Below, piece by piece: positions 9,202-58,200 of a stretch of 64,000 nucleotides of DNA. The notes under the pieces are model-generated. The model was not told the origin of the DNA. It did no database searches and saw nothing but the letters and a program-made list of their open reading frames with translations. The stretch comes from Nitrospinaceae bacterium (GTDB taxonomy: Bacteria > Nitrospinota > Nitrospinia > Nitrospinales > VA-1): positions 23 to 64,022 of the forward strand of contig JAJDAZ010000001.1 of NCBI GenBank assembly GCA_029261595.1, read 5' to 3'. A program made the translations under genes and the position numbers. The stretch's first letter is position 1. Every line of letters starts with the position of its first letter.

Positions 9202-9204
9202 AAG

Positions 9205-12164: not shown

Positions 12165-12184
12165 TGATTGAGGACTGACGCATT

Positions 12185-12421
12185 ATGAAACAGGGAATCC
12201 ATCCTGAATACCATGAAACCATGATCCGTTGCGCCTGTGGGCACGAAGTCAATATAGGCTCCACGGTGAAGGATTTGCATCTTGAAATATGCTCGAATTG
12301 CCACCCGTTTTATACCGGCAAACAAAAACTGCTGGACACGGCAGGACGCATTGAGAAGTTCAACCGGAAATACGGCAAGAAAAAATCCGAAAGCGATCCC
12401 GAACCCGCAACTCCCAATTAG
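12185..12421 (+). CDS. rpmE: 50S ribosomal protein L31
   Basis: MKQGIHPEY start and the CxCG...[10 protein letters not shown] zinc motif. Confidence 0.93.
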
Positions 12422-12441
12422 CTTCATTCCCCACCCATCAC

Positions 12442-12472
12442 GCTTTATGCCCTTATGATTGAGGCATAAAGC
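12442..12472 (+). terminator. Perfect 10-bp stem hairpin between rpmE and prfA
   Basis: GCTTTATGCC (12442-12451) pairs with GGCATAAAGC (12463-12472) around an 11-nt loop. The trailing T-tract is weak, so this could be a terminator, an attenuator or an RNA processing site. Confidence 0.35.
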
Positions 12473-12531
12473 TTCCTGGAAAATATCAGTCAAACCAGCA
12501 TCCGCCGAGCCTCCTTCTGTGAGGCAGACCC

Positions 12532-13638: not shown

Positions 13639-13693
13639 CTGTAAATAAACGAAGCGTAAAGCAACTTTCCTCAGTCCCAAGGTATTTTGAAGA

Positions 13694-15821: not shown

Positions 15822-15870
15822 TTCTATCGCCGGAAATTCATGATTAATCCTTAAAAAGGTCAATGACCCG

Positions 15871-34982: not shown

Positions 34983-36518
34983 TTAAAAATTGGCTGCTAC
35001 TTTAGAAGCTGTCTGGTATGTTGACCTTTGGGGAGAATTTTTCGAAAAGTCATACTGAGGCCATTGATCCTGGGCCGCGTAGATAGACGTATTTTTTGTC
35101 GATACCGACGGCATCACAACAAAAAGAAAGCCATGATATAAATCCGACAAAAAATGTCCATTCTTAAATGCGTTTAAAAACCTCCGGATTGTAAACCTGG
35201 GATTCAGGGTGACGGCTCGTTTATACGCATATTTCATAAAACCTTGCAGGGTGTCATAAGAGAGATTTTCATGAGCAAACAATTGTTCATCGGAATAGAC
35301 AACATACTTATCCCAGTCAAAAGATTTCACGAGACCTTTTTCCACGTAATTATCAAACATTTCCGTTCCGGGAAAGGCGATCGCCAAGCCAAATTTGAGT
35401 AAATCTACTGGCAGGGTGCGTCCATACTCTATCGTGTCCAGCATGGTATTTTCATCATCACATGAAAGACCGAGCATTAAATATGCGTTTGTTTGCAAGC
35501 CGGCGGCGCTGGCCTTTTTAACAGCGGTTCTTCCCTGCTCAATGGTAGCTTTTCCCCCTTTGCCAAAGCCCTTCAACACCTCATCGTTGCCGCTTTCGAA
35601 ACCAAAAGAAACCCGGTAACAGCCTGCTTTACTCATTTTTTTGAATAAATCATCATCAGCGCTTTCAACACGGATTCCATTATTGCAGGTCCAGTGCATA
35701 TTAACCTTGGCCCGGCTTATCGCGTCACTGACTTCTCCTGCCCATTTTTGATCGGAGGTGAAAATATCATCCGCCAACCAAAACTCACGGAAACCCAGGG
35801 AGCTTAAGTATTTGACTTCTTCAGCGCAACGCTCGGGGGATTTTTTCCGGTACCCTAAAGACATGGTAACTTTGCTGGCACAGAAATCACACGTGAACAC
35901 GCACCCTCTAGAAAATTCAACGGTAGCGACCGGTGGGTAGGAGGCAATCAGCTTGGAAATTTTTTTGTAATCGGAAGGATCATAAAGATCCCAGGCAGGC
36001 ATTGGCAGGTTGTCGAGATTTTCCACAGGGGGCCTTTGCTCGGTACTTATGATTTCGTCCCCGGATCGATAATATAATCCTTTTATTTCAGCAAAAGAAT
36101 TTCCGCTACAAACTTCCGCAAAAGAGTAATCAGCTTCACCGGCACAAATTACATCCAGTCGGGATTCGTGCAGACTTTCTACTGGCAATGCGGATGGGTG
36201 AGGCCCTCCGCCTACAACTATAATTTCTTCCGAGATATTTTTTACAATGCAACTGATATCCCGCAGTTGGTTCATTCCCGGGGTGGTCGCGGTAACCCCA
36301 ACGATATCCGGTTGGACTTGTAATATTCTAGATTGTATTAACTTGTAATCATAGGGACGCCAGCAAAGGTCCAGGATTTCCACTTCGTGTCCTTCTTGTC
36401 TGGCCACAGCGGCGATGGTTGCCAAGCCCAGGGTGGGGAAAAAAGGATTGACGATCGACGCTTTTGAATTTCCGTAAGCCGCCTGGTAGGAAGGATTTAT
36501 TAGAAGAACTTTTGCCAT
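34983..36518 (-). CDS. B12-binding-domain radical SAM enzyme (class B)
   Basis: N-terminal Rossmann-like B12-binding domain (KVLLINPS...GLATIAAVARQEGHEVEILD) and the radical SAM CxxxCxxC motif (SRGCVFTCDFCAS). Confidence 0.85.
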   Translation of the reverse strand: MAKVLLINPSYQAAYGNSKASIVNPFFPTLGLATIAAVARQEGHEVEILDLCWRPYDYKLIQSRILQVQPDIVGVTATTPGMNQLRDISCIVKNISEEIIVVGGGPHPSALPVESLHESRLDVICAGEADYSFAEVCSGNSFAEIKGLYYRSGDEIISTEQRPPVENLDNLPMPAWDLYDPSDYKKISKLIASYPPVATVEFSRGCVFTCDFCASKVTMSLGYRKKSPERCAEEVKYLSSLGFREFWLADDIFTSDQKWAGEVSDAISRAKVNMHWTCNNGIRVESADDDLFKKMSKAGCYRVSFGFESGNDEVLKGFGKGGKATIEQGRTAVKKASAAGLQTNAYLMLGLSCDDENTMLDTIEYGRTLPVDLLKFGLAIAFPGTEMFDNYVEKGLVKSFDWDKYVVYSDEQLFAHENLSYDTLQGFMKYAYKRAVTLNPRFTIRRFLNAFKNGHFLSDLYHGFLFVVMPSVSTKNTSIYAAQDQWPQYDFSKNSPQRSTYQTASKVAANF

Positions 36519-36599
36519 TATCTCATTCCCTTACTAAAGCAGCAGGGTTTCTCTTTCAAGGTTTTGTATATTATTCTGAAGAAACTACCAATTAAATTC

Positions 36600-37589
36600 T
36601 CACACGGGTTCCTTCTTTATTGAATATACTTCGATGGTGCCGCCCTTTTTTATTATAGCCTCGATTATAGATAACATTAATGAAAGTGGCAAATACAAAG
36701 GAATAAGGGCAATAGTTTTCAGGTAATCCATGGTTGGAGATGTATCATGGTCTTTCTTTCTTAGATCAGCACTCTTTAAAAGATTATACAAAAGGTTTTC
36801 CGGGATTCCGCTAGCATTGTACAGGGTCTGCAACCAGCCAAACGGGTTGTATTCAAACTTAAAATGCCTTGTCAATTCAACTTTGAACGAGTTTTTTTGA
36901 AGCAAGTCAAATAAGCTTTTTGAAGAAAAATGATAAAGATGGCAGGGGAGATCCAGTTGAAACCAATGTTTTTGTCCAAAGAGACCTTGTAAACTGTCTA
37001 TATTTGGTACTGCCGTTACAAGAAGACCGCCTTTTTTCAAAATTCGATAACACTCAGCGATGACTTCGTCCGGGTTTTCCAAATGCTCCAGGACATGGTT
37101 GATGTTTACCACATCAAAACTTTCACTTTCATATTCGCAGTCTTTTAACTCCCCGGTTCGAACATCAATCCCATAAATATCGGACGCGTATGAAGCGGAA
37201 ATTTCACTGAACTCCTGCCCGGCCACATCCCAACCATCTTCCTGCATGATATGAAGAAAAAGTCCGCGTCCACAGCCAATATCAAGAATCCGTCCATGAT
37301 CTCTAAAGCGCTCGATTCTTTTCCGCTTCCTGACGGTTAGTAGGTAAATGATATATTCCAGGGCAGGATTAAATCTCTTTCCCGTTTTTGTCCGATAATT
37401 TCCTGTCGAGTACAGCTTGGTTAATTCTTCGTGGGAAGGGAAAGGGTGGGTCACCCAAACCTGGCAGGAATCACACTTATATACACTATATGTATTATTA
37501 TTTTTTACCACACCGTTAATGATCGAGTTCTCAATTTGTTCTTTGCAAATTGGGCAGACCGGCGACGTGGTGCAGTTTATTTTTGTCAT
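36600..37589 (-). CDS. Class I SAM-dependent methyltransferase with an N-terminal zinc ribbon
   Basis: CPICKEQ...CDSCQVW zinc ribbon, SAM motif ILDIGCGRGLF, and DVVNINHVLEHL (Methyltransf_11/23-like). Confidence 0.8.
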   Translation of the reverse strand: MTKINCTTSPVCPICKEQIENSIINGVVKNNNTYSVYKCDSCQVWVTHPFPSHEELTKLYSTGNYRTKTGKRFNPALEYIIYLLTVRKRKRIERFRDHGRILDIGCGRGLFLHIMQEDGWDVAGQEFSEISASYASDIYGIDVRTGELKDCEYESESFDVVNINHVLEHLENPDEVIAECYRILKKGGLLVTAVPNIDSLQGLFGQKHWFQLDLPCHLYHFSSKSLFDLLQKNSFKVELTRHFKFEYNPFGWLQTLYNASGIPENLLYNLLKSADLRKKDHDTSPTMDYLKTIALIPLYLPLSLMLSIIEAIIKKGGTIEVYSIKKEPV

Positions 37590-40036: not shown

Positions 40037-41602
40037 ATGATAAAAACAACCCAAAAATCCGAGAAACTATTTCAACATAAAACCCCTTGCCTGGTGCTGT
40101 TTTGTCCCGAAGACAAAAAACCGGCAGGTGACTTGAAAAAAATCGACCAGGCCTTAAACGGCCCGGTTGCTTCCGCTTTCAAGGAAAAACGTTTTGAGGG
40201 CAAGCCCAATCAGACTCTCTTACTGAATGCCCGTGGCGCCATGAAGGCAGATAATGTTCTCATCGTGGGAATCGGCAAGCCTAAGGAAGTGACGGAAGAA
40301 AATTTGCGTCAGGCCGCGGGAACCGCTGCCAGTCTGGCGGAAGCCTCCCAGTTTAAAAGGGTAACTTTTTATATCCCAGAGGGTGACCTCGAAAAGGCCC
40401 TGACTAAAGATAAAAAGCAATCGTCCGGTGAGACCGCTCGGGCGGTGGCTGAAGGAAGTTATCTGGCCCTGTACCACTTCGACCAATATAAAAGTGTTGC
40501 CAAAGGTGAAGAACCCAACCGCATTGAAGAGATCATCCTGCTGTCAAACTCCAAGGCAGCGCTTTCTAACCTCAAACAAGCCAGTGCACGTGCTTCTATA
40601 GTGGCCGAAGGGGTTTATCGGGCGCGTGACTTGCAATCGCAACCGAGTAATACAGCGACACCTACTTTCCTGGCGAATACCGCTAAAAAAATCGCCGCCA
40701 AACATAAAATCACCTGCAAAATATTGGGTGAAAAAGAAATGCAGAAACTGGGTATGGGTTCTTTGCTCGGTGTGGCCAAGGGCAGTCATCAGCCGCCCGC
40801 GTTCATCATCCTGGAATACAAGGGTGGAAAAAAGAACGACGCGCCCATCGCCATTGTGGGCAAAGCGGTCACCTTCGACACCGGTGGCATCTCGCTCAAA
40901 CCCCCCGCCAATATGGACGAAATGAAAATGGACATGTCGGGTGGGGCGGTGACGATAGGAACCCTGCAAGCGGTCGCGAGCCTGAAATTGCCGATCAATG
41001 TGGTCGGGTTGATTCCCGCCACGGAAAACATGCCGGGAGGCTCGGCTATCAAGCCGGGAGATATTTTAACCAGCATGTCGGGAAAAACCATTGAAGTGCT
41101 GAACACCGATGCGGAAGGGCGTTTGATTCTGGCGGACGCCTTGAGTTATGCGGCCCGTTTCAAACCGCGTGCGGTTATCGACCTTGCGACCTTGACGGGG
41201 GCCGTTATCATGGCGCTCGGCCATTTTGCCGCAGGTGTCCTGGGCACTGATGATAACCTGATCGAAAAACTGCAGGCCAGCGGAACCCTCGCGGGAGAAA
41301 GGTTGTGGCACCTGCCGCTTTGGGACGAGCATGACAAGGCTACCCAAAGCGACATCGCCGACCTTAAAAACATTGCCTCGCCGGGAGTGGGAGCTGGAAC
41401 CACCATGGGCGCGGCCTTTTTAAAAGCGTTCGCGGGCGACCAGCCCTGGGCGCACCTGGACATCGCGGGCACTTCCTGGGGTGCGAAAAAACCTTACACC
41501 CCTAAAGGCGCATCCGGGTTCGGCGTACGGCTTCTGGTCAATTTCCTGGAACAGGAGGCCAATAGCGGGAAAGCAAAATCCGCCAAGAAACATGGAAAAT
41601 AA
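40037..41602 (+). CDS. pepA: Leucyl aminopeptidase (M17)
   Basis: M17 signature NTDAEGRL and the metal-site context VGKAVTFDTGGISLKP and DMSGGA. Confidence 0.92.
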   Translation: MIKTTQKSEKLFQHKTPCLVLFCPEDKKPAGDLKKIDQALNGPVASAFKEKRFEGKPNQTLLLNARGAMKADNVLIVGIGKPKEVTEENLRQAAGTAASLAEASQFKRVTFYIPEGDLEKALTKDKKQSSGETARAVAEGSYLALYHFDQYKSVAKGEEPNRIEEIILLSNSKAALSNLKQASARASIVAEGVYRARDLQSQPSNTATPTFLANTAKKIAAKHKITCKILGEKEMQKLGMGSLLGVAKGSHQPPAFIILEYKGGKKNDAPIAIVGKAVTFDTGGISLKPPANMDEMKMDMSGGAVTIGTLQAVASLKLPINVVGLIPATENMPGGSAIKPGDILTSMSGKTIEVLNTDAEGRLILADALSYAARFKPRAVIDLATLTGAVIMALGHFAAGVLGTDDNLIEKLQASGTLAGERLWHLPLWDEHDKATQSDIADLKNIASPGVGAGTTMGAAFLKAFAGDQPWAHLDIAGTSWGAKKPYTPKGASGFGVRLLVNFLEQEANSGKAKSAKKHGK

Positions 41603-43549: not shown

Positions 43550-44101
43550 GTGGTGGTGCGAATATTTTCAGTGTGGACGGCAGTTCTTATATGGTCCTGC
43601 GTTTTTTTACCTTCATTGGAAGCCGATGTTTTGAAGTGGGTCGATGACGATGGAACGACCTATTATTCGGACCTTCCGTTAAAAGGCATTGAGTTTGAAT
43701 GGGTCGAGGACGGTGAGAAGAGTTACTTCTCCTACGAGCCGACAAACGAAAAAAAGAATAAAAAACCCCAGGTTTTGCCTTCCCGTAGTATCTTGCCCAA
43801 ATCGATCCAGAAACCGAAAAAAGTTCACAAAGATTATGGCCAAGCAATCCTGGAGAGGCCCCCTGCAAGGCAGTATCCATCAGGGCGAGCCTCAACAGAG
43901 AGAATCTCCACGGAACGGACTTCAGCGCGAGGGGGTTCATCGGGACGAACCTCAACAGAGAGAATCTCCACGGAACGGACTTCAGCGCGAGGGGGCTCAT
44001 CGGGACGGACCTCAACAGAGAGAATCTTCACGGAACGGACTTCAGCGCGGGGAGGCTCATCGGGACGGACCTCAACAGAGAGGTACTCATCGGGGCGATG
44101 A
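43550..44101 (+). CDS. DUF4124-like secreted protein with a C-terminal 20-aa tandem-repeat region
   Basis: Signal peptide, then VLKWVDDDGTTYYSDLP (DUF4124-like), then about 3.4 copies of SGRTSTERISTERTSARGGS. Confidence 0.6.
   Translation: MVVRIFSVWTAVLIWSCVFLPSLEADVLKWVDDDGTTYYSDLPLKGIEFEWVEDGEKSYFSYEPTNEKKNKKPQVLPSRSILPKSIQKPKKVHKDYGQAILERPPARQYPSGRASTERISTERTSARGGSSGRTSTERISTERTSARGGSSGRTSTERIFTERTSARGGSSGRTSTERYSSGR
43890..44095 (+). repeat. 60-bp tandem repeat, about 3.4 copies, in-frame within the CDS
   Basis: The units 43890-43949, 43950-44009 and 44010-44069 are nearly identical, with a few substitutions (for example GGGGGTTCATCGGGACGAAC versus GGGGGCTCATCGGGACGGAC). A partial fourth copy follows. 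Confidence 0.9.
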
Positions 44102-44122: not shown

Positions 44123-44950
44123 TTAATTTTTTTGTTTTCCTACAAAAGCAACGTATAGAGTTGTTTCATCGATTCCATCGATTCGAAGTAATTTGTTGGC
44201 CTCGTCATCAAAAAAACCACATGTTGTCATCACGGCCAGGTTAAGTGCTGTACAAGAAAGATAGATATTTTGCCCGAGATGCCCCACATCCAGAAAAACA
44301 TACCGATAACCCCGCTCTCCATATTTTCGTTTTGTACGTTGTAAAACACCTGAAATCAGAAATACGACTGATGCTTCTTTGGTATATTCCTGCTGACAAC
44401 AAACGTTATATAATTTTTCTGTCGGGTCTCCTGGGAATAATAATTCGAGAGCGTGATCAGGGACATTGTAGTGATAAATTCCTGGCTCCACTCCTGAAAC
44501 ATGCCTGATCCCCAGATAAATCTCCGCGGGATAGAGAGCGCCTCCTGAAGGTGCCGCTCGTAGAGGTATTGATCCTTCGTCCGGGCGTTTCATTTCTCCC
44601 GTAATCCCATAACTTTGATAGAGGAGTTTGGATAATTCATTCAGGCTCAATTCTTCGTCGTTATTGAAACTTCGAACTGATCTTCTGGAATCAACCACCT
44701 CATCAAATTTTCTGTCACTGGGCAATAAACTTTCCTTTTCAGTAAGTTTGATTTGAGGCGCCAGCCGGTAGCGTTTGTACCCTCTGGCCATTGCAAGAAT
44801 TTCTGTTTGGGTGTAGTTGCCGGCAGCAATCATTTCAGTTGGGATTGAAGGGTGCAACTTGCTATTCTCGTGATACAACTCGGATATAGAGGTTTTTGGA
44901 TTTTCTTTCTTCGGCCCCAACACAGCAGATTGAACAATAATTCCTGGCAT
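44123..44950 (-). CDS. SagB-type (McbC-like) FMN-dependent dehydrogenase of a TOMM cluster
   Basis: Nitroreductase-fold SagB-type motifs are present: SRRSVRSF, LSKLLYQSYGITG and RAAPSGGALYPAEIYL. It lies directly downstream of the YcaO gene. Confidence 0.85.
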   Translation of the reverse strand: MPGIIVQSAVLGPKKENPKTSISELYHENSKLHPSIPTEMIAAGNYTQTEILAMARGYKRYRLAPQIKLTEKESLLPSDRKFDEVVDSRRSVRSFNNDEELSLNELSKLLYQSYGITGEMKRPDEGSIPLRAAPSGGALYPAEIYLGIRHVSGVEPGIYHYNVPDHALELLFPGDPTEKLYNVCCQQEYTKEASVVFLISGVLQRTKRKYGERGYRYVFLDVGHLGQNIYLSCTALNLAVMTTCGFFDDEANKLLRIDGIDETTLYVAFVGKQKN

Positions 44951-44970: not shown

Positions 44971-46338
44971 TCAGGGAAATGGGTGAGGATAGGGATTTAA
45001 ACCCTCCTCACTAAGTGGTTTTTCTAGAAGACCCATTTGAACTGGCACTTCATACAATCTTTTGCCTCCTTCATATCTTCTGGAATGATTTATATCCAAA
45101 GGTTGCATTCCAGGAATAACGGAGCGAACTACTTTGAAACCGACTTCATCTATATCCAGCGTAGTCAGGTCGTAGCTGATCACATCGAAATCTTTATCAG
45201 CGAGCATTTCCACCAATGTTTGGACATTATCCACTTTACTGTTAGTGGATAAGCTGGGAAGAGCATCGAATGAAAGTTGTGATTCAGAGGATTTTAGAAA
45301 ATTTAATGATGAACGAAGCTCTGGGCAGACGGCGTGAGCAAGGGCGTGTAAGGTGGGAGTTTTAATATCCTCGAAATTCGGTTCAGGTTTGTAATTCTTC
45401 CTTAACTTTGCGTAGCGACTCATTCCCAGGAATGTTAAATACGCCTCCTCCAAGGCTTGAGCAAGTGCTCGGTTGGGATCGAGGTCGGCTCCTATCCCCA
45501 TGGTGGTATAAGGCACCCCACTGGAATTTTTCAGAATAACAATAAGAACGGGGACATTAATGTTTGAAGTTAAATAGAAAACTTCGCAATCCAAAGGAAC
45601 ATATTCCAATACTCTCAACAATTGATGAACGAAGGGATCATTTGAACTCCAGGGATTGAGGCGCGGTTGGCTCAGTCGATTTTTCCATACCAGCATGAAT
45701 GTGTCCCGTTCAATGACCTCCAGGATACTCTTGTACAGAGCCCAGGAAATATCCGGTCCACAAGCCAGGCCCGTTGAGATGGGATTAAAATATGGAGTTT
45801 CCTTAGGGGCATCAAACAAGTAGGGAACGTAAACAAATCCAGCTGGAATCCACCGTGGAACATCATCTCGCAGGGAATGCCCTTGTGCCCAACGGAGAGG
45901 TTTTCGGTGAGTCAAAGGAGAGAAAGGAAATTTTTCTTGTGAATACTGTTTATCACTATAAAGAGAAAAGGTTTGGGGATCTACGGCATCAACTTTCAGT
46001 TCTTTATAGGTGGATAATACTAAGCCTTTTTCATCGTATTGCCCGGAGCAATACCGCTCAACACATTCTCCCACCGATTTGATCATGGCGCGTTCTGGGC
46101 TTATTGAAGCTGCATCTCCGTGATTCAAGGCTTCTTGCCCACATAGTACCGAAACATTGGCGGGTTCACTGTGGGCTGAATACACATCAGGTTCGCCGGG
46201 AAAAAGTTCTTCAAAATCAATCTTTGAAATAATTCCGGTCCGGTCGCTAACGAGTCTTTCGGCGCGTTCGATGCTCTCGTGGAGATCAATTTCAGGTCCG
46301 TCTTTGAGAGTCGACAAGGAAATTGCTGAATTTTTCAA
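44971..46338 (-). CDS. YcaO-family cyclodehydratase (TOMM D protein)
   Basis: YcaO-type motifs (SVGECVERY, STGLACGP, ILEVIERD) in 455 aa. Its start overlaps the stop of the upstream C-protein gene by 4 nt. Confidence 0.88.
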   Translation of the reverse strand: MKNSAISLSTLKDGPEIDLHESIERAERLVSDRTGIISKIDFEELFPGEPDVYSAHSEPANVSVLCGQEALNHGDAASISPERAMIKSVGECVERYCSGQYDEKGLVLSTYKELKVDAVDPQTFSLYSDKQYSQEKFPFSPLTHRKPLRWAQGHSLRDDVPRWIPAGFVYVPYLFDAPKETPYFNPISTGLACGPDISWALYKSILEVIERDTFMLVWKNRLSQPRLNPWSSNDPFVHQLLRVLEYVPLDCEVFYLTSNINVPVLIVILKNSSGVPYTTMGIGADLDPNRALAQALEEAYLTFLGMSRYAKLRKNYKPEPNFEDIKTPTLHALAHAVCPELRSSLNFLKSSESQLSFDALPSLSTNSKVDNVQTLVEMLADKDFDVISYDLTTLDIDEVGFKVVRSVIPGMQPLDINHSRRYEGGKRLYEVPVQMGLLEKPLSEEGLNPYPHPFP

Positions 46339-47399
46339 GATACTTTTTTGGAAAGAAAGATGGTGTCATCCCAGGCTTCCATTTTTGCATTTTGTGGAAT
46401 GCATGCTGGGCAACGGGGAAGTCGAAGGACCTCGTGTCCAAGGATGGTTGGTGATGTGGCATCAAATTCATAAAAGCGACCGATGGTCTTTGGCGGAGCA
46501 AACCCCGTGATCGAACGCACCACTTCAAGCGCGACCTGACCCGCAATAACTGAGGTCAAGGCCGGGAACAGCCCCTCACTATTAGGACAAGTGTCAGTGG
46601 ACGCCAGTTGCTTCCTATAGGCCAAGTGCGTTTCCAGATCAGCCATATTGGAATCGATTCGTCTTTGATAGCAAACATAACATGCGGACTGGTGAGGAAT
46701 CACCGTGGGCCCTAAATAGGCTTTGGTCCCTTCAACGGACACTCGAATCCAACGAACGCCATTCTCAAGGCAGATAGAATTTATTGTTTCAAAATTTCTT
46801 GGATCTGGCGTTTCCTGGCAGACGATCAGATAATCTAAATTTTTAATAGAATCTGCTAAGTTCGAACCATTGTTTTTTGATGTTTTGTCTAAAGCGGTCT
46901 GAATATCAGGAGAAAGGTCAATGCCGTTGTCATACAAAGAGTTTTCAATGCTGATTCTTAATGAGGGAGAACCCAGTACGGCAACTTTTGCCTCCTTCAG
47001 TAAAGCCAATGCGCCAATAGGGTTTGACACATAATGAGACAAAAACTGAATGAGATTGTCATGTTTTTTCAGGTCCTCTGATTTAAGAGGAGCGGGAGGA
47101 GCAACATTTCCTTCCTGCAAAAGACCGTTGGCGCGCAACATCTTTAGCAGGAAAGTAATGGTCGTTGGCAGATAAGTCTGGCCACCGGATGAAGCGATTT
47201 CTTCTACATCATGTTCACCGTTCAACAGGGGACGTATCACTTCTAATGCAGCGATAAATAACTCATGATTGAGCGTGTAAGTAAATTCGGCCCCCCGCAA
47301 CTGCAGGCGGTTATCGCCAAGGGCCACAAAAGTGACCCAAGGCGCTAACCGAGGTTTCTGGGGTAAGGATATAGTTGCATACTTTACCGCCGCTACCAT
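46335..47399 (-). CDS. TOMM cyclodehydratase C protein (E1/ThiF-like, with an N-terminal RRE-like leader-binding domain)
   Basis: The N-terminal roughly 90 aa resemble a PqqD-like RRE (LQLRGAEFTYTLNHELFIAALEVIRPLLNGEHDVEEI). The C-terminal E1-like fold has a CxxC pair (ACYVCYQRR and LPRCPACI) but no obvious ATP P-loop. Confidence 0.75.
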   Translation of the reverse strand: MVAAVKYATISLPQKPRLAPWVTFVALGDNRLQLRGAEFTYTLNHELFIAALEVIRPLLNGEHDVEEIASSGGQTYLPTTITFLLKMLRANGLLQEGNVAPPAPLKSEDLKKHDNLIQFLSHYVSNPIGALALLKEAKVAVLGSPSLRISIENSLYDNGIDLSPDIQTALDKTSKNNGSNLADSIKNLDYLIVCQETPDPRNFETINSICLENGVRWIRVSVEGTKAYLGPTVIPHQSACYVCYQRRIDSNMADLETHLAYRKQLASTDTCPNSEGLFPALTSVIAGQVALEVVRSITGFAPPKTIGRFYEFDATSPTILGHEVLRLPRCPACIPQNAKMEAWDDTIFLSKKVS

Positions 47400-47488: not shown

Positions 47489-47701
47489 TTATTCAGCCGC
47501 ATAGCATGTGCAACACCATGCGACGGGCCGAAATTCTTCCTTTTGAATCCCAATGGGGTCAATGGATTTTACCGCCAGCATTCCCTTTTCATTCATTCCG
47601 TACTCCACCTTGATTTCTCCAGAGTCAGAAACCAATGCTTTTCTGTACTCTTCATCTGTGGACAACTGCTTGAGCGCTTCTTGAAAATCTGCGTGTACCA
47701 T
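47489..47701 (-). CDS. TOMM/LAP precursor peptide (70 aa) with C-terminal core WCCTCYAAE
   Basis: GGAGA lies 6 nt upstream of the ATG. The gene is 90 nt upstream of the C-protein gene on the same strand. The leader is long and helical (FQEALKQLSTDEEYRKALVSD...), and all Cys residues are confined to the last 9 residues. Confidence 0.75.
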   Translation of the reverse strand: MVHADFQEALKQLSTDEEYRKALVSDSGEIKVEYGMNEKGMLAVKSIDPIGIQKEEFRPVAWCCTCYAAE

Positions 47702-48060
47702 AGTGAGTCTCCTTTTTTTCGAAATTTTAATCCCAAATGGAGTTAGTCCTGCCCTCCCTATAGCACATAGAAATAAAGCCTGTCCAGGCTATATTGAGTT
47801 CGGGAGAGGGATACAAAACCTTATTATACAATTAGTTCGAGATGCTGAAATTAAACGGAAAACTATTGCGCTAGGGATAATAACGAGCACTCCGAATATT
47901 ATTTTGTTCACCTTAAAAAATATTCTGAATTATCAAAAGTCCGATTTTTTTTTAACAGACACGAAATAAATTAATCTGGCATACCCAAAATCCGGTATGA
48001 TGCGGGGTCAATCAGTTGGACTTATATTGGCTCACCTATATAGTAAGATTTTTTTTATTC

Positions 48061-50151
48061 ATGGCTTTTCCAAGGGATAAAATCCAAAAAACTTTTAATA
48101 ACTTCTCTAAAAAGTTTTTTTCAATTTTTATTTTTTTCTCCGTATTTTTCTCCATTCCTGCCTCAAAAGTTTATTCAGACGATACCAAGGGCTTGTCTCA
48201 AGAGCAGCTTGAGATTCTTAGAATGGATATTAAGGACTTGATGCAAACCGACGTCATCGTTACCTCTGTCAGTAAAAGGCCTCAATCCCTTCACCAGACG
48301 GCTTCTGCGGTTTATGTTGTCACGCAAGAGGATATTCGCCGGACAGGCGCCGTCAATATAATGGAGGCTTTGCGGATTGTTCCAGGCGTTCAGGTATCCA
48401 AAATTAATCAGAACCGTTACGCGATTTCCATACGGGGATTCAACCGGAGATTGGGATCAGACAAACTGCTTGTACTGATGGATGGAAGAACCGTGTACAG
48501 CCCCTCCGCTTCGGGGGTTTTTTGGATTGGCCAGGACACGGTATTGGAAGACATTGATCGAATCGAAGTGATCCGGGGGCCTGGGGCTTCCCTCTGGGGT
48601 TCCAATGCGGTGGCGGGAGTGATCAATATTATCACTAAGAAGTCTCCTGAAACTCAGGGTATTCTGCTTTCCGGAGGCACTGGTACCGAGGAAAGCGGGT
48701 TTGGGACCCTTCGATACGGAGGAAAAATTGGCAAAGACTTTTCTTACAGGGTCTATGGGAAATACCGGGATCGAGATGAGGGTAAGAAACTTGATGGAAC
48801 GAAGCCCATCGACGATAAACAAATAAGCCAGACGGGGTTCAGGTCAGATTGGCAGATAAATTCAAAAGACAATCTCACGATGCAGGGGGATTATTATCAT
48901 CTGGACGCGGGGCTGGATTTTTCCAGCAGGTTTGTTTCCTTAACCGCCGGGTCGAGCCCTTTTAAGGGGGACAATACTCAAACAGGCGCTAATTTTCTCT
49001 CACGCTGGACTCGGAAGTTAGACGATTCATCTTCCTTCCAATTCCAGGCTTATTATGATCGTTTAGAGAGAAAATCGGCGTTGCCCTTTAAAAATATTGT
49101 TGATCAAGTCGATTTGGATTTTCAGCACAATTTTTTGATCGGGGAAAAGCACAATTTCCTATGGGGATTGAATTACCGATTTTCCTTTTTCGATTTTGAG
49201 CAAACTAATATTCTTACTTTTTCGAATCAAAGAACCAACCTTTTTGGCGGTTTTTTTCATGATGAAATTACGATTATTCCAAATCGTTGGAATTTAATTC
49301 TCGGTGCCAAATTAGAACATAATGAGTTCACTGGTATCGAAATCCAGCCAAACATACGTACTGTCTGGACACCTGATTCTAAAAACACATTTTGGGCTTC
49401 GGTTTCCCGCGCTGTAAGAACCCCTAGCATTACCGAAGACCGCGCGCTTGCCAACCGATCTCTGGTTCCGGGAGCCCCCCCTCTTTTAATTCGGGAAAGC
49501 AATGATGGAAGAACAGATTCGGAAGAATTGATCGCTTATGAAATGGGATACCGGGTAAAGCCAAATCCTGACCTGAGTTTTGATTTGGCCGGGTTTTTAT
49601 TTGATTACAATCGATTGATTGAAAGTGTCAGCACAGGCGCCATATTGTTTGAGGCGACTCCCACCCCTGCGCACCTGGTATTTGAAACCTTCAATGACAA
49701 TGTCCTGGAAGGAGAAGTTTTTGGAGTGGAATTAAGTGCTCAGTGGCAACCCATAGAAAACTGGCGTCTTTCGGGAAGCTATACCTTCACAAAAATTGAC
49801 CTGCGTCCAACAGAGAGTGGCATTGTCTTTCCTCAAAGCAGTGGTGGAGAAGGCGATCTCGACGCAGAAGGAGAACCAAATCATCTAATTCACTTACGTT
49901 CCTATCTGAATTTGCCTCATAATCTTGAATTTGATACCTCATTTTATTATGTGAGTAGCAACTCGGCCCGAAGCATACCCGGTTACAGCCGGGTTGACCT
50001 TCGTTTGGGATGGAAGCCTATAAAAAAACTGGAACTATCCCTGGTCGGTCAAAATATATTCGATGAAAGTCATCAAGAACTCACGGAACTTTTAGAAGTC
50101 GGAACTGAAACTGAAAGAAGTTTTTATTTCAAAGCGACGTTTAATTTTTGA
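48061..50151 (+). CDS. TonB-dependent outer-membrane receptor
   Basis: Plug motifs (VIVTSVSKRPQ, IEVIRGPGASLWGSNAVAGVINIITK), a long beta-barrel and a terminal aromatic residue (ATFNF). A TTG at 48016 is an alternative start. Confidence 0.9.
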   Translation: MAFPRDKIQKTFNNFSKKFFSIFIFFSVFFSIPASKVYSDDTKGLSQEQLEILRMDIKDLMQTDVIVTSVSKRPQSLHQTASAVYVVTQEDIRRTGAVNIMEALRIVPGVQVSKINQNRYAISIRGFNRRLGSDKLLVLMDGRTVYSPSASGVFWIGQDTVLEDIDRIEVIRGPGASLWGSNAVAGVINIITKKSPETQGILLSGGTGTEESGFGTLRYGGKIGKDFSYRVYGKYRDRDEGKKLDGTKPIDDKQISQTGFRSDWQINSKDNLTMQGDYYHLDAGLDFSSRFVSLTAGSSPFKGDNTQTGANFLSRWTRKLDDSSSFQFQAYYDRLERKSALPFKNIVDQVDLDFQHNFLIGEKHNFLWGLNYRFSFFDFEQTNILTFSNQRTNLFGGFFHDEITIIPNRWNLILGAKLEHNEFTGIEIQPNIRTVWTPDSKNTFWASVSRAVRTPSITEDRALANRSLVPGAPPLLIRESNDGRTDSEELIAYEMGYRVKPNPDLSFDLAGFLFDYNRLIESVSTGAILFEATPTPAHLVFETFNDNVLEGEVFGVELSAQWQPIENWRLSGSYTFTKIDLRPTESGIVFPQSSGGEGDLDAEGEPNHLIHLRSYLNLPHNLEFDTSFYYVSSNSARSIPGYSRVDLRLGWKPIKKLELSLVGQNIFDESHQELTELLEVGTETERSFYFKATFNF

Positions 50152-50180: not shown

Positions 50181-51047
50181 ATGAAAATTAATATTAGACC
50201 CGCTATTTCTACTGATGCAGAAACATGCGGTCGAATTATTTTTGAAAGTTTCAAAAACCTTTCCAATCAGCATGGATTCCCGTGTGATTTTCCAACAATG
50301 GAGGTCGCTGCCGGGCTTGCAGATATATTAATTAGGAAAAGTACGGTATTCAGCATCGTTGCTGAAATTAATGGATCAATAGTCGGATGTAATTTTTTAA
50401 ATGAAATAAATCCTATCCGTAGTGTCGGCCCATTGTGTGTTAGCCCTGATTTTCAGGGCCATGGGGTTGGGCGCAGGCTCATGGAAGAAGTGTTGCGTAG
50501 GGCCAAAGACTCTCTTGGGATTCGCTTGATTCAGGAAACCCTAAATATTGTTTCAAGTTCTCTTTATATCTCGCTAGGTTTTGAAGTAAAGGAATCCCTG
50601 TTTTTGTTAACGGGGAGACCGAAAACCAATGTTTCCAAGCAAGGAATTGTTGTTCGCCCTTTTACTTTGGAAGAAAAAAATCTGTGCGCAGAGTTATGTG
50701 CAGATATTTATGGTTTTGAGCGCACTCAAGAGGTTTTAGATGCATTGAATTTTTCCATCCCATTTATTGCTCTGCGTGGAAACCGATTAATCGCATATTC
50801 CTCTTCAATGACCATGTCAATGACGAACCACTGTGTGGCCAAGACAGAAGAAGATATGAAAGCGCTTTTTCTGGGTATTGCAAAATTAACTTCTGAGCCA
50901 CTTGTTTTCCTTTTGCCAGTCCGTCGAATAGAACTTTTTCGATGGTGTTTGGAAGAAGGGTTTCGGATTGTGAAACCTTTCACTTTAATGTCAAAAGGAG
51001 AATATTTTGAACCTAACGGAATCTATTGTCCTTCCGCTAGTTATTAA
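50181..51047 (+). CDS. GNAT-family N-acetyltransferase with an extra C-terminal domain
   Basis: Acetyl-CoA motif A FQGHGVGRRLMEEVLRRA. About 130 further residues of unknown function follow. Confidence 0.75.
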   Translation: MKINIRPAISTDAETCGRIIFESFKNLSNQHGFPCDFPTMEVAAGLADILIRKSTVFSIVAEINGSIVGCNFLNEINPIRSVGPLCVSPDFQGHGVGRRLMEEVLRRAKDSLGIRLIQETLNIVSSSLYISLGFEVKESLFLLTGRPKTNVSKQGIVVRPFTLEEKNLCAELCADIYGFERTQEVLDALNFSIPFIALRGNRLIAYSSSMTMSMTNHCVAKTEEDMKALFLGIAKLTSEPLVFLLPVRRIELFRWCLEEGFRIVKPFTLMSKGEYFEPNGIYCPSASY

Positions 51048-51205: not shown

Positions 51206-51778
51206 ATGCTAAATAACTCTCTCAAAAAAATCGTTTTCCTTCTTATCCTATCTAGCCTAGCGGGTCGAATTTTTGGCATTTCTAATTATGCGTTTGCCGG
51301 GGATTTCGTAGCTCGCGAGGCCACTATAAAAGCGGGTTTTCTATTAAAATTTTCCGAATTTATCCAATGGCCAGAATATTACAGTTCTCTTCATTCCGAA
51401 GAACCTCTTAATATATGCCTCCATGGAGAGGATAAGTTTGGAAATATCTTCGATTATGTAAATGATCACGACATATTGAGAAGAAAAATAGAAATTACTC
51501 GTTCTGTCCCAATTAATGAGTTAAAAAGTTGTCATCTAGTATTTATCAGCACTCATAAAATCGAAGATATTGACAAATTAGCTAGGGAAATTAGAAAATC
51601 TCCCGTTCTCGTGGTTACAACAAGCAAAGCAATATCCCACCCCTTGGTCGCGATTAATTTTCGTAAAATCAATAACCGAATCCGTTTTGAGATAAATTTA
51701 TCTGCTTTTGAACGATCTGGGATAAAAATTAGTTCAGAGCTTCTAAAATTAGCAATAAATATAGTCAGAATTGATTAA
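51206..51778 (+). CDS. YfiR-family (DUF4154) periplasmic protein
   Basis: Signal peptide. The conserved start of DUF4154 (IKAGFLLKFSEFIQWP) and a C-terminal RFEINLSAFERSGIKISSELLKLA are present. Confidence 0.7.
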   Translation: MLNNSLKKIVFLLILSSLAGRIFGISNYAFAGDFVAREATIKAGFLLKFSEFIQWPEYYSSLHSEEPLNICLHGEDKFGNIFDYVNDHDILRRKIEITRSVPINELKSCHLVFISTHKIEDIDKLAREIRKSPVLVVTTSKAISHPLVAINFRKINNRIRFEINLSAFERSGIKISSELLKLAINIVRID

Positions 51779-53282: not shown

Positions 53283-53314
53283 ATGGAAAGGGTTTTAACG
53301 GGCTGTTGGATAAT

Positions 53315-54766
53315 ATGAAGGATTTGAATTTTTTTTCAATTAAAAAAAAATTAACCTACCTGTTCATGCTTGTTTCAGGAACTACACTCATAATATTAAC
53401 CACGTTTTTCATATATAACGATATAAAAATTTTCAAAAAAAGCTTACTAGATAAACTTTCTATATTAGCCAGCGTAGTTGGTTCAAATGTAAGAGTAGCT
53501 CTATATTTTGAAGATAATGAAGCCGCCACGAAAGTGCTATCATTGTTAATGGAAGATTCGCAAATTGAATTTACTGGCTTATATGATTCAAAAGGAAAAA
53601 TTTTCGCTAAATATCAATCTGCTGGATTTTCTAGAGATAAATATAGATCCAGTGGTAATAAAAAGAATTATATCGAACTAAAAAAACAGATCTTATTGAA
53701 AGGTGCTTTTATTGGGAGCATCTTAATAATTGCAAACTTAAATGAATTCAGAGAAAAGCAAAGAAAGTACTTTCAACTAGTGGGAATTATTCTGCTTGCA
53801 ACTATAGGATTGGTTATTTGGCTATCAATCAAACTACAAAGAATCATTTCCAAACCAATATTAAATTTAGCCAATACCGCTAATAAAATTTCGAATACTA
53901 ATAACTACTCTTTACGGGTCAATTATCCACATGTGGATGAATTGGGGCAACTATACAATTGTTTCAATGAGATGATTGCCCAAATTGATAAAAGAGAAAT
54001 ACAATTAAATGACTATAGGAAACATTTAGAACACAAGGTTCAAAAACGAACTAAAGAATTATCGCTTATCAACTCTCAACTTAGCATTGAAGTAGAAAGG
54101 CGAAAAAATTTTGAAGATCACCTTAAAAATTCTCTTGATGAGAAAGAAATTCTGCTCAAAGAAATTCACCATCGTGTAAAAAATAATCTTCAAATCATTT
54201 CCAGCCTTCTAAATATTCAGGCCCAATATAAAGGGCCGGAGTACTCTCACATCTTTTCTGATTGTAGTAACCGGATCCAATCTATTGCCCTTCTCCATGA
54301 AAATATTTATAAAACCTCTAAATATATGCAAATTAATTTTGATCAATATATTGAAAATTTGGTTAAATATTTATTTCAAACATTTGGAATATCCTCCGAG
54401 GCAGTTAAGGTAAACATTCAGGTTTCTAATATACCTTTGGACCTTGACGCGGTATTGCCGTGTGGTTTGATAGTCCAGGAACTTATTTCCAATTCATTGA
54501 AGCATGCTTTTCCTGATGGGAAAGGTGAAATTGATATTTGTATGCAATATATTATTGAGGGTGAAAATAATATAGAGCTTAACGTAAGCGATAACGGAGT
54601 TGGGTTGCCCGAAAAGTTTGACCTTGAAGAGGTTGATACATTGGGTTTAAAACTTGTTTCTAGATTGGTTGAAAATCAATTAAAAGGAACAATTTTTATC
54701 AATCTGGAGGAAAAAACCGAATTTAAAATAAAATTTATGAGTAGGAAAGAAAACAATGTCTTCTGA
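53315..54766 (+). CDS. Sensor histidine kinase: paralogous CHASE8-like sensor, HAMP, HisKA_2-type (HWE-like) kinase core
   Basis: The N-terminal sensor is clearly paralogous to the preceding kinase ([38 protein letters not shown]). The H-box [17 protein letters not shown] is of the HisKA_2 type. The ATPase box is SDNGVGLP. Confidence 0.85.
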
Positions 54767-55151
54767 TAAGGCCAGAATTTTAATTGTGGAGGATGAGGAT
54801 ATTGTCGTGTTTGATATTGAATTGATCTTAGAGGCTGCCGGTTTTGATGTAGTAGGGTCCGCTTCTTCCGCTGTAAAGGCAATTCAAAAATTGAATGAAG
54901 AACAAATAGATTTGGCAATTTTGGACATTAGACTTGAGGGTAAGATCGATGGTATTACCCTTGCGGATACAATAAGTAAAATTTATAAGATCCCTGTAAT
55001 TTTTCTTACGGCATTTTCATGTAAGAAGATTTTGGATAGAGCTAAAATTTCTACACATTATGGATTCCTTGTTAAACCATTTAACCCGGAAACTTTAGTG
55101 TCAAATATCGAAATTGCTCTTTATAAACACAAAAGTGCTGAAGAGAAATAA
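54756..55151 (+). CDS. Single-domain (CheY-like) response regulator
   Basis: Receiver motifs are present: [10 protein letters not shown], the phospho-acceptor context DLAILDIRL, and FLTAFS...VKPF. It overlaps the kinase stop by 11 nt. Confidence 0.9.
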
Positions 55152-55497: not shown

Positions 55498-56736
55498 TTA
55501 ATAGATGATAGGTTCCTTTTTGCTGTCGTTTAATAAATGAACCCCTAAAAAACGTCTTTGCGAAATAATGTCATTTTTTGTATTACCAATGGTTTTAAAA
55601 TAAATTCTTAACAATGGGCTAATTCGTCGACTAATTCTATTATCAATTTCTTCAAACAAATTTCTTGCATTGCAAAACTTATAATGATTTCCCCATCCCA
55701 TTAATTTGAAATTAATTTGAGAGAGTGTAGAAACCAATGAATTGTCTCTAACATTTTTCTTTTTAAAATTTTTTAATTGCTCAATCCCTGCATTTACAAT
55801 TATGTCAATATTTTGATATAGATTGTCGATTGTCTTTTGGTTTGGCAAGATGGAGTCTTCCGAAAGAATACAACCTAAAAAATTGATCCCGTCCTTTGAT
55901 TTCCCTTTTTGTGCTTTTGAGTTATTTTCAGAAGGATCATAAATTTCCATACCAAATTTCTCTAAGTGTCTTTTAGCAAGCTTGACAGCCCTTTGTAGCT
56001 TCGATTCTGTTTTGCATAAAATTAAAAAATCATCGATGAAACGAATGCAATTTATTTTGTTCGAATTCATTTCCTCATCAAATTTTTTTAACAAAACATT
56101 ACCAAAAAAGGGTGACAAAGATGAGCCTTGCGGTGCACCAATTTCTTGATCAGGAAATAAATGCCTATTTTTTAATCTGTTAATATTTTCTAATTCAACC
56201 TTAGTTGCGTTTTTTAGCAATATATTTATTGATTGGTCGGGATCTATTAAATCAAAAATTTTATCGAGCACAATTTGCTTTGGAATTTTTGTGAAAAACC
56301 CTTTTATGTCTGCCCTGCAATAATGGCGGCATCCAGATTTAATGATCTCGTGGGCTTCTTTTAAGGCCATGCTCACACTTCTTTTTGGAAGGCCTCCGAA
56401 GCTTCTAGGGCTAGATAAGAAGGATTTTACTTGCGGATTTTGCCACAAACAATCCAATAAGGCTCGATGAACAATCCGATCGTGAAGGTGCGGTACAACT
56501 AAAGGCCTTAATTGCCCATTTTCCTTTTCAATTTCCACGCCTCTGGCTAATTTAAAAGAGTACCTCTCTCCTCTAAGTTGATCTTTTATTGTTTTGAGGT
56601 AGGTATTTTCTTTTTCTTTGAATTTAATAACTTCGGATTGGGTTATTTGCGACTGAGATTGCAAACCATTTTCGTATACTTTTTTCCAAGCATTGGATAG
56701 GCAGTCATTTGTACGTAGCTTTTGATCGAGGGACAT
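55498..56736 (-). CDS. Stand-alone reverse transcriptase, group-II-intron-like (candidate defence-associated/unknown-group RT)
   Basis: RT motifs RPLVVPHLHDRIVHRALL (1-2), ADIKGFFTKIP (3), GAPQGSSLSPFFGNVLL (4) and CIRFIDDFLILC (5, FIDD in place of YADD). INFLGC (7) and a maturase/thumb-like LMGWGNHYKFCN are also present. There is no endonuclease domain. Confidence 0.88.
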   Translation of the reverse strand: MSLDQKLRTNDCLSNAWKKVYENGLQSQSQITQSEVIKFKEKENTYLKTIKDQLRGERYSFKLARGVEIEKENGQLRPLVVPHLHDRIVHRALLDCLWQNPQVKSFLSSPRSFGGLPKRSVSMALKEAHEIIKSGCRHYCRADIKGFFTKIPKQIVLDKIFDLIDPDQSINILLKNATKVELENINRLKNRHLFPDQEIGAPQGSSLSPFFGNVLLKKFDEEMNSNKINCIRFIDDFLILCKTESKLQRAVKLAKRHLEKFGMEIYDPSENNSKAQKGKSKDGINFLGCILSEDSILPNQKTIDNLYQNIDIIVNAGIEQLKNFKKKNVRDNSLVSTLSQINFKLMGWGNHYKFCNARNLFEEIDNRISRRISPLLRIYFKTIGNTKNDIISQRRFLGVHLLNDSKKEPIIY

Positions 56737-57315: not shown

Positions 57316-58200
57316 TTACACTTGATCGAAAACGAGCCTTCCACCACCGTTACGTTTTGCTCGATAGATTGCGATGTCAAGATTAACGTCGCGAGCCTTA
57401 CCAACGATGTCCTCAATGTCGGACTTCTCCATCTCGAGTCCGAGATACAACTCCGTGATCTCTTCAGGATGGTATGGGACAGTGTTCCAGGGCCGTTCGT
57501 CTTTCCTGATCGGAATAGCTAGGCGATATTCCCCTTCGTGTTGCCAATCCAACGTTTTGGTGTAAATGATCCGTTCGACGATCTCTCTGACTTGGGATTC
57601 ATGGTTGCCAAATAAAGCGCCAGCACTAAATTTAAGCGTATCTTCGTAGAGCGGAGGGCGTTTCTCTCGGTATATGACGGGACGAAAGAGTTGGAATTTA
57701 GAGTCATTGGAAAAATTTGGTTGGATTCGCAGGGAAACGCCCTTGTGCTTTTCAGCATACTCAGTCCACATGCGCTCCGAGTCTTTGTGGGTAGAGACGC
57801 AAAGAACGCGATAATCCTGCATGAACTCGTTGATCTCTGCGATATGCGCCTGTGCCTTGTCACGGTAGTACTCAACGTTATCGGGCAGGTTCATCAGTTC
57901 GGCCCTAACCAAGTCAGCGGCACCTGGATTCGCTCGGTAACCCTGCTGAATGGCCCTGATTTTTTCCTTCATCGGCGAACTGCATGTGGGCTCCTCGTCA
58001 AGGTGACGTAGGATCATGTCAGTGAAGCCACCAGCGATCTTCTTCAGCGCTTCCTCGGTGTCCTCTGAGAAGATACTTTGGATCGTCAGATCCTCTACAT
58101 CGTTAAAATCCGACGGTTTTGCGTGTTTGAATGTCCTGTTTGCGAACGTCAGCTTCGCACCTGTAACGTCAAGGTACTTGTAAAGTGGAGGCAAAGTCAT
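57316..58200 (-). CDS. DUF2971-like protein (unknown function), leftmost gene of the putative prophage
   Basis: The N-terminus (PPLYKYLDVTGAKLTFANRTFKHAKPSDFNDVED) matches my recollection of the DUF2971 pattern (LYKY...l.F..p..FNDp.E). It is co-oriented with the repressor gene immediately upstream of it. Confidence 0.5.
   Translation of the reverse strand: MTLPPLYKYLDVTGAKLTFANRTFKHAKPSDFNDVEDLTIQSIFSEDTEEALKKIAGGFTDMILRHLDEEPTCSSPMKEKIRAIQQGYRANPGAADLVRAELMNLPDNVEYYRDKAQAHIAEINEFMQDYRVLCVSTHKDSERMWTEYAEKHKGVSLRIQPNFSNDSKFQLFRPVIYREKRPPLYEDTLKFSAGALFGNHESQVREIVERIIYTKTLDWQHEGEYRLAIPIRKDERPWNTVPYHPEEITELYLGLEMEKSDIEDIVGKARDVNLDIAIYRAKRNGGGRLVFDQV

Follow-up and report, generated by a model that had tools for sequence, protein, structure and literature searches.

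Azole-containing RiPPs (peptides that are made by the ribosome and modified after translation) are known almost wholly as antibiotics and toxins, and linkage of such a peptide to an importer and a sensor would add nutrient acquisition or self-signalling to their roles. Here, we describe a locus of this kind in a 64,000-nucleotide stretch of contig JAJDAZ010000001.1 (positions 23 to 64,022, forward strand) from the Nitrospinaceae bacterium assembly GCA_029261595.1, hereafter referred to as the window. A small open reading frame (ORF) at 47489-47701 very probably encodes a genuine azole-RiPP precursor, and the gene for a TonB-dependent outer-membrane receptor lies divergent from it. The best explanation for the locus as a whole, to which we assign a probability of about 0.5, is that an azole RiPP would be recaptured by this receptor, perhaps as a metallophore with signalling.

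The closest described systems are clusters of TOMM (thiazole/oxazole-modified microcin) type whose precursors carry NHLP or Nif11 leaders (PMC2887384, PMC4603692). Like them, the locus in the window combines an extended helical leader, akin to nitrile hydratase alpha, with a short C-terminal core and a YcaO protein of the cyanobactin grouping. Unlike them, its precursors score far under the cut-offs of TIGR03793, TIGR04509, and NF038399, the window peptide is without a Gly-Gly motif, the core is a fixed run of Cys, Ser, and Thr rather than a hypervariable segment, and a TonB receptor and a sensor module are linked to the cluster. No ABC transporter, peptidase-ABC exporters included, and no C39 peptidase was found among the cluster genes in any locus. 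Plantazolicin, azolemycin, telomestatin, and microcin B17 share with the predicted product the conversion of consecutive Cys, Ser, and Thr residues to directly linked azoles by a C/D/B enzyme trio, but the present locus differs from them in leader family, in taxon (Nitrospinota), and in accessory genes, it lacks a methyltransferase, a CaaX-type protease, an immunity gene, and an exporter, and the core is mostly all-Cys, with up to five consecutive Cys residues.

Three further systems resemble parts of the locus. Methanobactin is a RiPP chalkophore with a TonB-dependent importer, MbnT, and its leader protease is unknown or unlinked; apart from the present locus, we know of no further RiPP class that carries a TonB receptor of its own. 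The likeness of a cluster-encoded TonB-dependent receptor is one of architecture only, and no MbnB or MbnC (MNIO/DUF692) enzymes were found either in the window cluster or at related loci. Unlike methanobactin, the locus would not involve oxazolone-thioamide chemistry, and YfiR-like protein and CHASE8 kinases take the place of a sigma/anti-sigma pair. In the YfiBNR (TpbB) system, a periplasmic DUF4154/YfiR-like protein likewise stands beside an inner-membrane CHASE8 sensor, but the output module here is a HisKA/HATPase histidine kinase rather than a diguanylate cyclase (GGDEF), and the outer-membrane partner is a TonB-dependent receptor rather than the OmpA-like lipoprotein YfiB. Finally, LigA-type precursors such as SonA of the split borosins (PDB 7ltc, 8t1s, 9chi) show weak profile similarity (E 0.011-0.05), which is marginal and confined to the leader, and no alpha-N-methyltransferase partner is present here.

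The precursor gene and its translation signal are as follows.

47489-47701, minus strand: precursor peptide gene (A), 70 amino acids, from the reverse-complement translation
47709-47713, minus strand: Shine-Dalgarno site AGGAG, 7 nucleotides before the precursor ATG

The peptide MVHADFQEALKQLSTDEEYRKALVSDSGEIKVEYGMNEKGMLAVKSIDPIGIQKEEFRPVAWCCTCYAAE followed by a stop codon is the exact reverse-complement translation of this interval, whereas the plus-strand reading is an unrelated sequence. The original prediction had placed a peptide at these coordinates, and its sequence is confirmed exactly, but the minus strand had gone unstated. The peptide is laid out as a leader of approximately residues 1-57, a junction R58-P-V-A-W62, the core C63-C64-T65-C66, and a tail of YAAE. 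A search of 5.8 billion protein clusters returned five close homologues (an identical protein and four at 74-81% identity), across which RPVAWCCTC (R58-C66) is invariant. Two profile searches, one of them against 1.84 billion representatives, and a scan of metagenomes enlarged the family to 43 distinct homologous precursors, and all available source names are Nitrospinota (Nitrospinaceae, Nitrospinales, and Nitrospinota metagenome-assembled genomes, or MAGs). The precursor ORF is under purifying selection, with a ratio of nonsynonymous to synonymous substitution rates (dN/dS) of 0.13-0.23 at a dS of 0.75-1.0 in pairwise comparisons with two orthologues. The close homologues, the 43-member family, and this ratio together indicate that 47489-47701 is a real gene and not a chance ORF. 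An (A)GGAG Shine-Dalgarno site is also kept in the related loci L002, L004, L006, L010, L012, and L013. The sole locus obtained from a precursor-profile scan of a genome collection, L001 from an uncultured Nitrospira MAG, was discarded as a 15-residue chance match without a small ORF or azole genes.

Wherever the flank of a related locus extends far enough, a small ORF occupies the same position, its Cys run is always kept, and it adjoins the C gene on the upstream side in all loci except L024, where the flank stops short. No second conserved small ORF was found between the receptor and C genes, which speaks against another peptide being the substrate. The original prediction had specified what would overturn it, namely, the lack of a conserved small ORF, unconserved Cys/Thr positions, or a different substrate ORF; instead, both the ORF and the Cys run are kept across the related loci. 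The three genes directly downstream of the precursor encode the predicted modification enzymes.

46335-47399, minus strand: C protein, E1/ThiF-like cyclodehydratase partner, 354 amino acids, with an N-terminal winged-helix domain that is a predicted RiPP recognition element (RRE); TIGR03882 and ThiF Pfam matches
44971-46338, minus strand: D protein, SagD-type YcaO ATP-dependent cyclodehydratase, 455 amino acids; TIGR03604 and PF02624 matches
44123-44950, minus strand: B protein, SagB-type flavin mononucleotide (FMN) dehydrogenase (azoline to azole), 275 amino acids; TIGR03605 and Nitroreductase Pfam matches

Because the C, D, and B genes follow the precursor directly on the same strand and score over curated cut-offs, the locus reads as a canonical A-C-D-B azole-forming operon. 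The C protein scored 55.1 bits on TIGR03882 ('TOMM precursor leader peptide-binding protein'; cut-off 36.9) and 51.7 bits on the ThiF Pfam model, and its 73 bits on the SagC model TIGR03603 fell under the cut-off of 188. Over residues 33-335 it can be aligned with the N-terminal half of both LynD and TruD, and orthologues that are 36-76% identical occur in all loci. The D protein scored 303.3 bits on TIGR03604 (cut-off 219.25) and 220 bits on PF02624 and ends in ...PYPHPFP, a terminus conserved across loci as ...PYPH(P/M/A)FP. The C and D genes overlap by 4 nucleotides, as they do in most related loci, which suggests translational coupling. Among solved structures, C and D lie nearest to TruD, LynD, and MusD, which are fused cyanobactin heterocyclases, in agreement with the reported grouping of NHLP/Nif11-type enzymes with cyanobactin ones (PMC4603692). 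The B protein scored 149.9 bits on TIGR03605 (cut-off 78.4) and contains an RKYGERGYRY motif, with orthologues 54-87% identical. The locus therefore holds the genetic elements by which a linear azol(in)e-containing peptide (LAP) or TOMM cluster is recognised, that is, a YcaO protein, an E1-like/RRE partner, a SagB dehydrogenase, and an adjacent small precursor, and the C, D, and B enzymes are complete and intact at all loci. The proposal that the peptide is a TOMM-type precursor is thus supported by the C, YcaO, and SagB genes directly downstream and by the retention of the small ORF and Cys run in related loci.

Across the 43 distinct precursors, the conserved core is a contiguous run of four to seven residues made up only of Cys, Ser, and Thr. 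CCTC is the most frequent form (16 precursors), followed by CCCC (10), CCCTC (5), and CCCCC (4), with CCTCS, CCTCT, CSCCTC, CCCCTC, CCCCTCT, CSCST, SCCC, and SCCCCC represented by one case each. In front of the run there is usually R-P-x-x plus a single hydrophobic or aromatic residue, and a tail of 0-16 residues comes after it, the last Cys being terminal in two members. A conserved W-C-C-T-C-Y core, as originally anticipated, was not found; rather, a C/S/T run of variable length follows an R-P-x-x-hydrophobic motif. Tyr67 varies even among close relatives (Y/A/T/S/W/F/L), while Trp62 is conserved in the nearest clade only and is replaced elsewhere by F, L, I, Y, V, A, or G. The accompanying claim that all heterocyclisable residues are contiguous applies to Cys, which in the window peptide is found only at the C-terminus, but not to Ser and Thr, given that the leader also contains Ser14, Thr15, Ser25, Ser27, and Ser46.

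Within the family, Cys is almost never found in the leader, and Cys, Thr, and Ser swap for one another within the run. This swapping, together with the nearly Cys-free leader, leads us to expect azole formation and argues against a disulfide, a thiol role, or a folded domain. A Cys run that is un- or only partly heterocyclised and acts through free thiols, either in metallothionein-like metal binding or in redox chemistry, would draw on the strong affinity of poly-Cys stretches for soft metals, and the distant member L030 does have an interrupted core, SSCVCICCT. Nevertheless, the replacement of Cys by Ser or Thr in runs such as CCTC, CSCST, and SCCC keeps heterocyclisability but not thiol chemistry, and complete, intact C, D, and B proteins are always present. 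We consider this explanation, along with the variant in which another peptide is the substrate, very improbable.

The leader conforms to the consensus M-x-H-x-x-(F/L)-Q-E-A-(I/L)-x-x-L-S-x-D-E-x-Y...D-P-x-x-(I/L)-x-x-(D/K)-(F/Y)-x-L. AlphaFold2, run with a 22-sequence alignment, predicted four helices over residues 2-44 and coil over the last approximately 20 residues, at a modest mean confidence (pLDDT, predicted local distance difference test) of 61.6. The window peptide scored 17.3 bits on NF038399 (cut-off 40) and 13.4 bits on TIGR04509 (cut-off 34) and gave no match to TIGR03793 (NHLP). Among 42 members searched, 25 weakly matched NF038399 ('Os1348 family NHLP clan protein') at E <= 0.01, with a best E of 2.5e-7, and at the same threshold there were weak matches to TIGR03793 (4 members), TIGR04509 (3), and nitrile hydratase alpha (2); none of the 42 reached a curated family cut-off. 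When the family profile was compared to the PDB, the best matches were nitrile hydratase alpha, at E 0.001, and SonA, a LigA-type RiPP precursor, at E 0.011. By these profile scores, the kinship of the leader to NHLP/LigA-type leaders is at the level of the clan and not of family membership. The loosely NHLP/LigA-like helical leader described in the original prediction is borne out by these NF038399, nitrile hydratase alpha, and SonA matches, and its statement that the peptide belongs to no described TOMM precursor family agrees with the failure of any member to reach a curated cut-off. The window peptide also lacks a Gly-Gly motif, as had been noted, and GG is present in only 6 of 43 relatives.

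Four related loci displayed departures from the usual precursor arrangement. In L024, two different family precursors, at 78-272 (plus strand) and 347-544 (minus strand), lie convergently upstream of the receptor, both with CCCC-WQSDN, and some loci therefore carry more than one precursor. In L010 (6897-7459), the gap between the precursor and C genes is 563 nucleotides, compared to 63-99 nucleotides in other loci, and no second precursor-like ORF was found in it. In L032 (3628-4191, plus strand), a family precursor ending in ...RMPGMCCCTCS is called as a 187-amino-acid product with a long Lys/Ala-rich, histone-H1-like N-terminal extension, and an internal Met would yield a precursor of normal size. 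Also in L032 (Nitrospinaceae, GCA_021604505.1; 2167-2964, minus strand), a 265-amino-acid protein encoded beside the family cluster comprises an NHLP-like leader, FQEVLYKLCTDSAFRARVEANHEIL, then an FCCCCG run, and then a THAP4/nitrobindin-type haem-binding domain; it could represent a precursor-like module fused to a folded domain. The fourth locus is L030, with the interrupted core described above.

Based on homology to characterised enzymes, the C protein would bind the helical NHLP/LigA-like leader, the YcaO protein would cyclodehydrate the whole contiguous C/S/T run, here Cys63-Cys64-Thr65-Cys66, in an ATP-dependent manner, and the SagB dehydrogenase would oxidise the resulting azolines. 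The predicted product is a rigid block of four linked azoles, thiazole-thiazole-methyloxazole-thiazole (Thz-Thz-MeOxz-Thz), between Trp62 and Tyr67, and the products of relatives would contain four to seven azoles.

The gene divergent from the precursor encodes the receptor.

48016-50151, plus strand: TonB-dependent receptor of the outer membrane, transcribed divergently from the precursor; Pfam matches to Plug and barrel domains

The receptor ORF starts with TTG at 48016, and the 696-amino-acid product of the public annotation (P0045) implies a start at 48061. It scored 588.7 bits on the equivalog model NF053590 ('TOL_0244 family'), and its relatives 537-591 bits, against a cut-off of 645, placing the receptor in a sister group of the TOL_0244 family rather than within it. 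Every one of the 17 loci that bear a precursor has a receptor orthologue adjoining that precursor or the operon; those listed are the window, L002, L004, L006, L008, L010, L012-L015, L017, L020, L022, L024-L026, L030, and L032. The orthologues beside a precursor are 57-77% identical, and at the same divergence the receptor is more conserved (57-60%) than D (43-51%), C (36-46%), or the precursor (27-40%). In L032, all of the genes are co-directional, in the order A-C-D-B-receptor-DUF4154-kinase-regulator. In a sample anchored on the receptor, peptide genes were present in 11 of 14 loci with usable flanks, the exceptions being L023, L031 (49% identity), and L033.

The conservation of the receptor also bears on whether the product is an antibiotic or toxin directed at competitors, in the manner of microcin B17 or plantazolicin, with the receptor and sensor genes merely regulatory or adjacent. 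Antibiotics and toxins make up most of the characterised linear azole peptides (for microcin B17, see the review PMC6722960), contiguous azoles are DNA-, gyrase-, or membrane-active pharmacophores, and receptor/DUF4154/kinase modules do occur without peptide genes, as in L033. On the other hand, the receptor is kept at precursor identities of ~27-40%, even where sensor genes are missing, and its conservation exceeds that of the enzymes; a toxin producer would not normally carry a receptor for taking up its own toxin; and no immunity or export genes equivalent to the McbEFG-type functions are linked. Since the receptor is retained and immunity and export genes are absent, an antibiotic role is less likely than either the metallophore or the signal, and we view it as improbable.

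Two of the loci, L006 and L008, have cobalamin-related genes directly beside the family receptor. Each carries two cobalamin riboswitches (L006, 5496-5656 and 7296-7488; L008, 2894-3071 and 7304-7493), which control CobS/CobU and a BtuB-like receptor with cob genes, and these cob genes occupy the place held in other loci by DUF4154/kinase genes. A cobalamin or cobalt link for the family was considered on account of the cob genes and second receptor and was rejected, as the cob units have their own riboswitches; none was found before the family receptor or precursor in either locus, and the second receptor is unrelated to the family receptor (26% identity).

Between the divergent precursor and receptor genes lies a conserved non-coding block, approximately 75-90 nucleotides upstream of the precursor start, and a set of sensor genes follows the receptor.

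47777-47790, minus strand: perfect palindrome AGCCTG-GA-CAGGCT within the conserved non-coding block
51206-51778, plus strand: YfiR/HmsC-like protein (DUF4154) of the periplasm, carrying a signal-peptide-like segment at its N-terminus; PF13689, 114.8 bits
51771-53282, plus strand: membrane histidine kinase, CHASE8 periplasmic sensor-HAMP-HisKA-HATPase (Pfam domains)
53306-54766, plus strand: second CHASE8-HAMP histidine kinase, HisKA_2/HWE type (Pfam domains)
54756-55151, plus strand: stand-alone response-regulator receiver protein (Pfam domain)

The palindrome and its flanks are invariant in the window, L002, L004, and L013. Because this block is invariant while synonymous sites of the adjacent gene are near saturation, 47777-47790 is likely to be an operator in the divergent precursor/receptor control region. 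The CHASE8 model (PF17152) scored 66 and 47 bits in the two kinases. In 13 loci, DUF4154 comes next after the receptor, in most cases together with a CHASE8 kinase, which is placed behind DUF4154 in L002, L012, L013, L015-L017, L019, L030, and L032. L033 contains the receptor/DUF4154/CHASE8 triad without any azole genes, implying that the sensor module is more widespread, with one of its clades coupled to the peptide. In the 5.1-Mb genome that contains L033, tandem receptor relatives are encoded at 8001-16881, one of them called as a 1036-amino-acid double Plug/barrel product, and DUF4154 and a CHASE8 hybrid kinase follow them.

The remaining steps of the proposed mechanism are drawn from conserved synteny. 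The product would exit the cell through unlinked export and leader-removal functions, the dedicated TonB-dependent receptor would bind it at the outer membrane, and the YfiR-like protein and CHASE8 kinases would report its arrival in the periplasm. That the product is the ligand of the receptor has, in our estimation, an even chance. The original prediction had pointed to a pharmacophore reminiscent of gyrase- or DNA-binding and metal-binding natural products; given the dedicated TonB-dependent receptor and periplasmic sensor module, metal-binding/uptake or signalling is favoured over gyrase or DNA binding. The species recaptured would most likely be a metal chelate, making the product a ribosomal polyazole metallophore with receptor-coupled signalling. 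A chelate is favoured because 2,4'-linked consecutive azoles form bipyridine-like diimine sites and because methanobactin provides a precedent for a metallophore with a TonB receptor. Taken on its own, the proposal that the ligand is a metal complex is tentative, with the odds somewhat against it.

Several observations weigh against recapture of a metallophore, the weightiest being that no exporter or protease is linked and that no metal signature was seen. Searches of seven divergent control regions for Fur and Zur boxes gave only poor, non-conserved matches, with consensus sequences that are proteobacterial and may not fit Nitrospinota, nor did the divergent control region show any further sign of regulation by metals. 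The product chemistry is wholly predicted from the genes, and none of the signatures points to a metal. Fully oxidised polythiazoles have no free thiols and, to our knowledge, are not established natural metallophores. Solved structures were uninformative as to the ligand class of the receptor, with likeness only in the plug domain (Cir, PfeA, BtuB, FecA). Conserved genes for a leader peptidase, an ABC/MATE/RND exporter, or immunity are absent from all of the loci, so secretion is an assumption. The DUF4154 and kinase genes are absent beside the receptor in L006, L008, and L010. Finally, given the receptor relatives without an azole cluster (L023, L031, and L033), the peptide could be a regulated output of the receptor/sensor module and not its ligand.

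Some of the same observations would fit a metal-free peptide signal. Here, a secreted, autoinducer-like polyazole too large or hydrophobic for porins would enter through the receptor and switch the kinases on, with the YfiR-like protein or a CHASE8 domain as its periplasmic target. The failure to find Fur or Zur boxes is in keeping with this, as are the receptor-DUF4154-CHASE8 triad in 13 loci, with one locus a single co-directional gene string, and the general role of YfiR/CHASE8 pairs as periplasmic signalling devices, exemplified by YfiBNR; the operator-like palindrome in the shared control region would suit feedback control. Nonetheless, the three loci just mentioned keep the receptor without adjoining sensor genes, the output regulators vary by locus (bare receiver, receiver-PAS, or receiver-GerE), and we are not aware of any earlier case of a peptide pheromone that is TonB-dependent, leading us to regard a pure signal as unlikely.

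The enzymology of the locus is known (TOMM/LAP) and its leader comes from a known clan. The precursor family, the fixed poly-Cys/Ser/Thr core, and the coupling to a TonB receptor and YfiR-like/CHASE8 sensor appear to be undescribed: a full-text literature search, with subscription journals mostly outside its coverage, found nothing on the precursor family, a TonB-receptor-linked azole RiPP, or the receptor/DUF4154/CHASE8 triad. If recapture of the product is correct, no azole RiPP before this one would have had an uptake receptor of its own, and if a metal is involved, it would constitute a second class of ribosomal metallophore after methanobactin, chemically unrelated to it. The peptide could also supply a first ligand for the receptor/YfiR-like/CHASE8 triad. 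Nitrospinota include key marine nitrite oxidisers, and their trace-metal acquisition is poorly understood. For another marine nitrite oxidiser, Nitrospira marina, several TonB receptors but no siderophore biosynthesis genes were recognised (bioRxiv 10.1101/2020.07.02.185504). Standard searches for siderophores would miss a chelator that is made ribosomally. The specific proposal that Nitrospina-type bacteria make a ribosomal polythiazole, as an oligo-diimine chelator or a signal, recapture it with a co-evolving TonB receptor, and relay its arrival through a YfiR-like/CHASE8 circuit is possible, at a little below even odds. With four biosynthetic genes and a four-residue core, the system is small, and the prediction is directly testable by heterologous expression.

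Several other genes neighbour the cluster in the window, one of which lies between the receptor and the sensor genes.

50181-51047, plus strand: GNAT acetyltransferase, 288 amino acids (Pfam GNAT families)

This gene was considered as a conserved tailoring enzyme and rejected, being at this position only in the window, L013 (63%), and L017 (48%); the GNAT protein in L010 is unrelated (E 4.6). Likewise, the M17 leucyl aminopeptidase (40037-41602), a CopD-like membrane protein, and a DUF4124 repeat protein were considered as candidate protease or exporter functions, and none is conserved in related loci. The DUF4124 protein (43550-44101, plus strand) is convergent with the SagB gene, and its C-terminal half is a tandem repeat of approximately 20 residues, TSTERISTERTSARGGSSGR....

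The segment 50000-56000, which contains the GNAT, YfiR-like, kinase, and receiver genes, has a G+C content of 0.33-0.36, compared to 0.44 for the azole operon and receptor and 0.43-0.53 for the flanks. Past the sensor genes lie a group II intron-type reverse transcriptase/maturase (RVT_1 and GIIM; 55498-56736, minus strand) and a DUF2971 protein (57316-58200, minus strand). No known RNA element, group II intron RNA included, was found anywhere in the window at the Rfam gathering threshold. On the other side of the operon, 34983-37589 (minus strand) encodes a B12-binding radical SAM protein (511 amino acids) beside a 329-amino-acid class I methyltransferase that has an N-terminal Cys-rich segment, and may be a separate modification locus.

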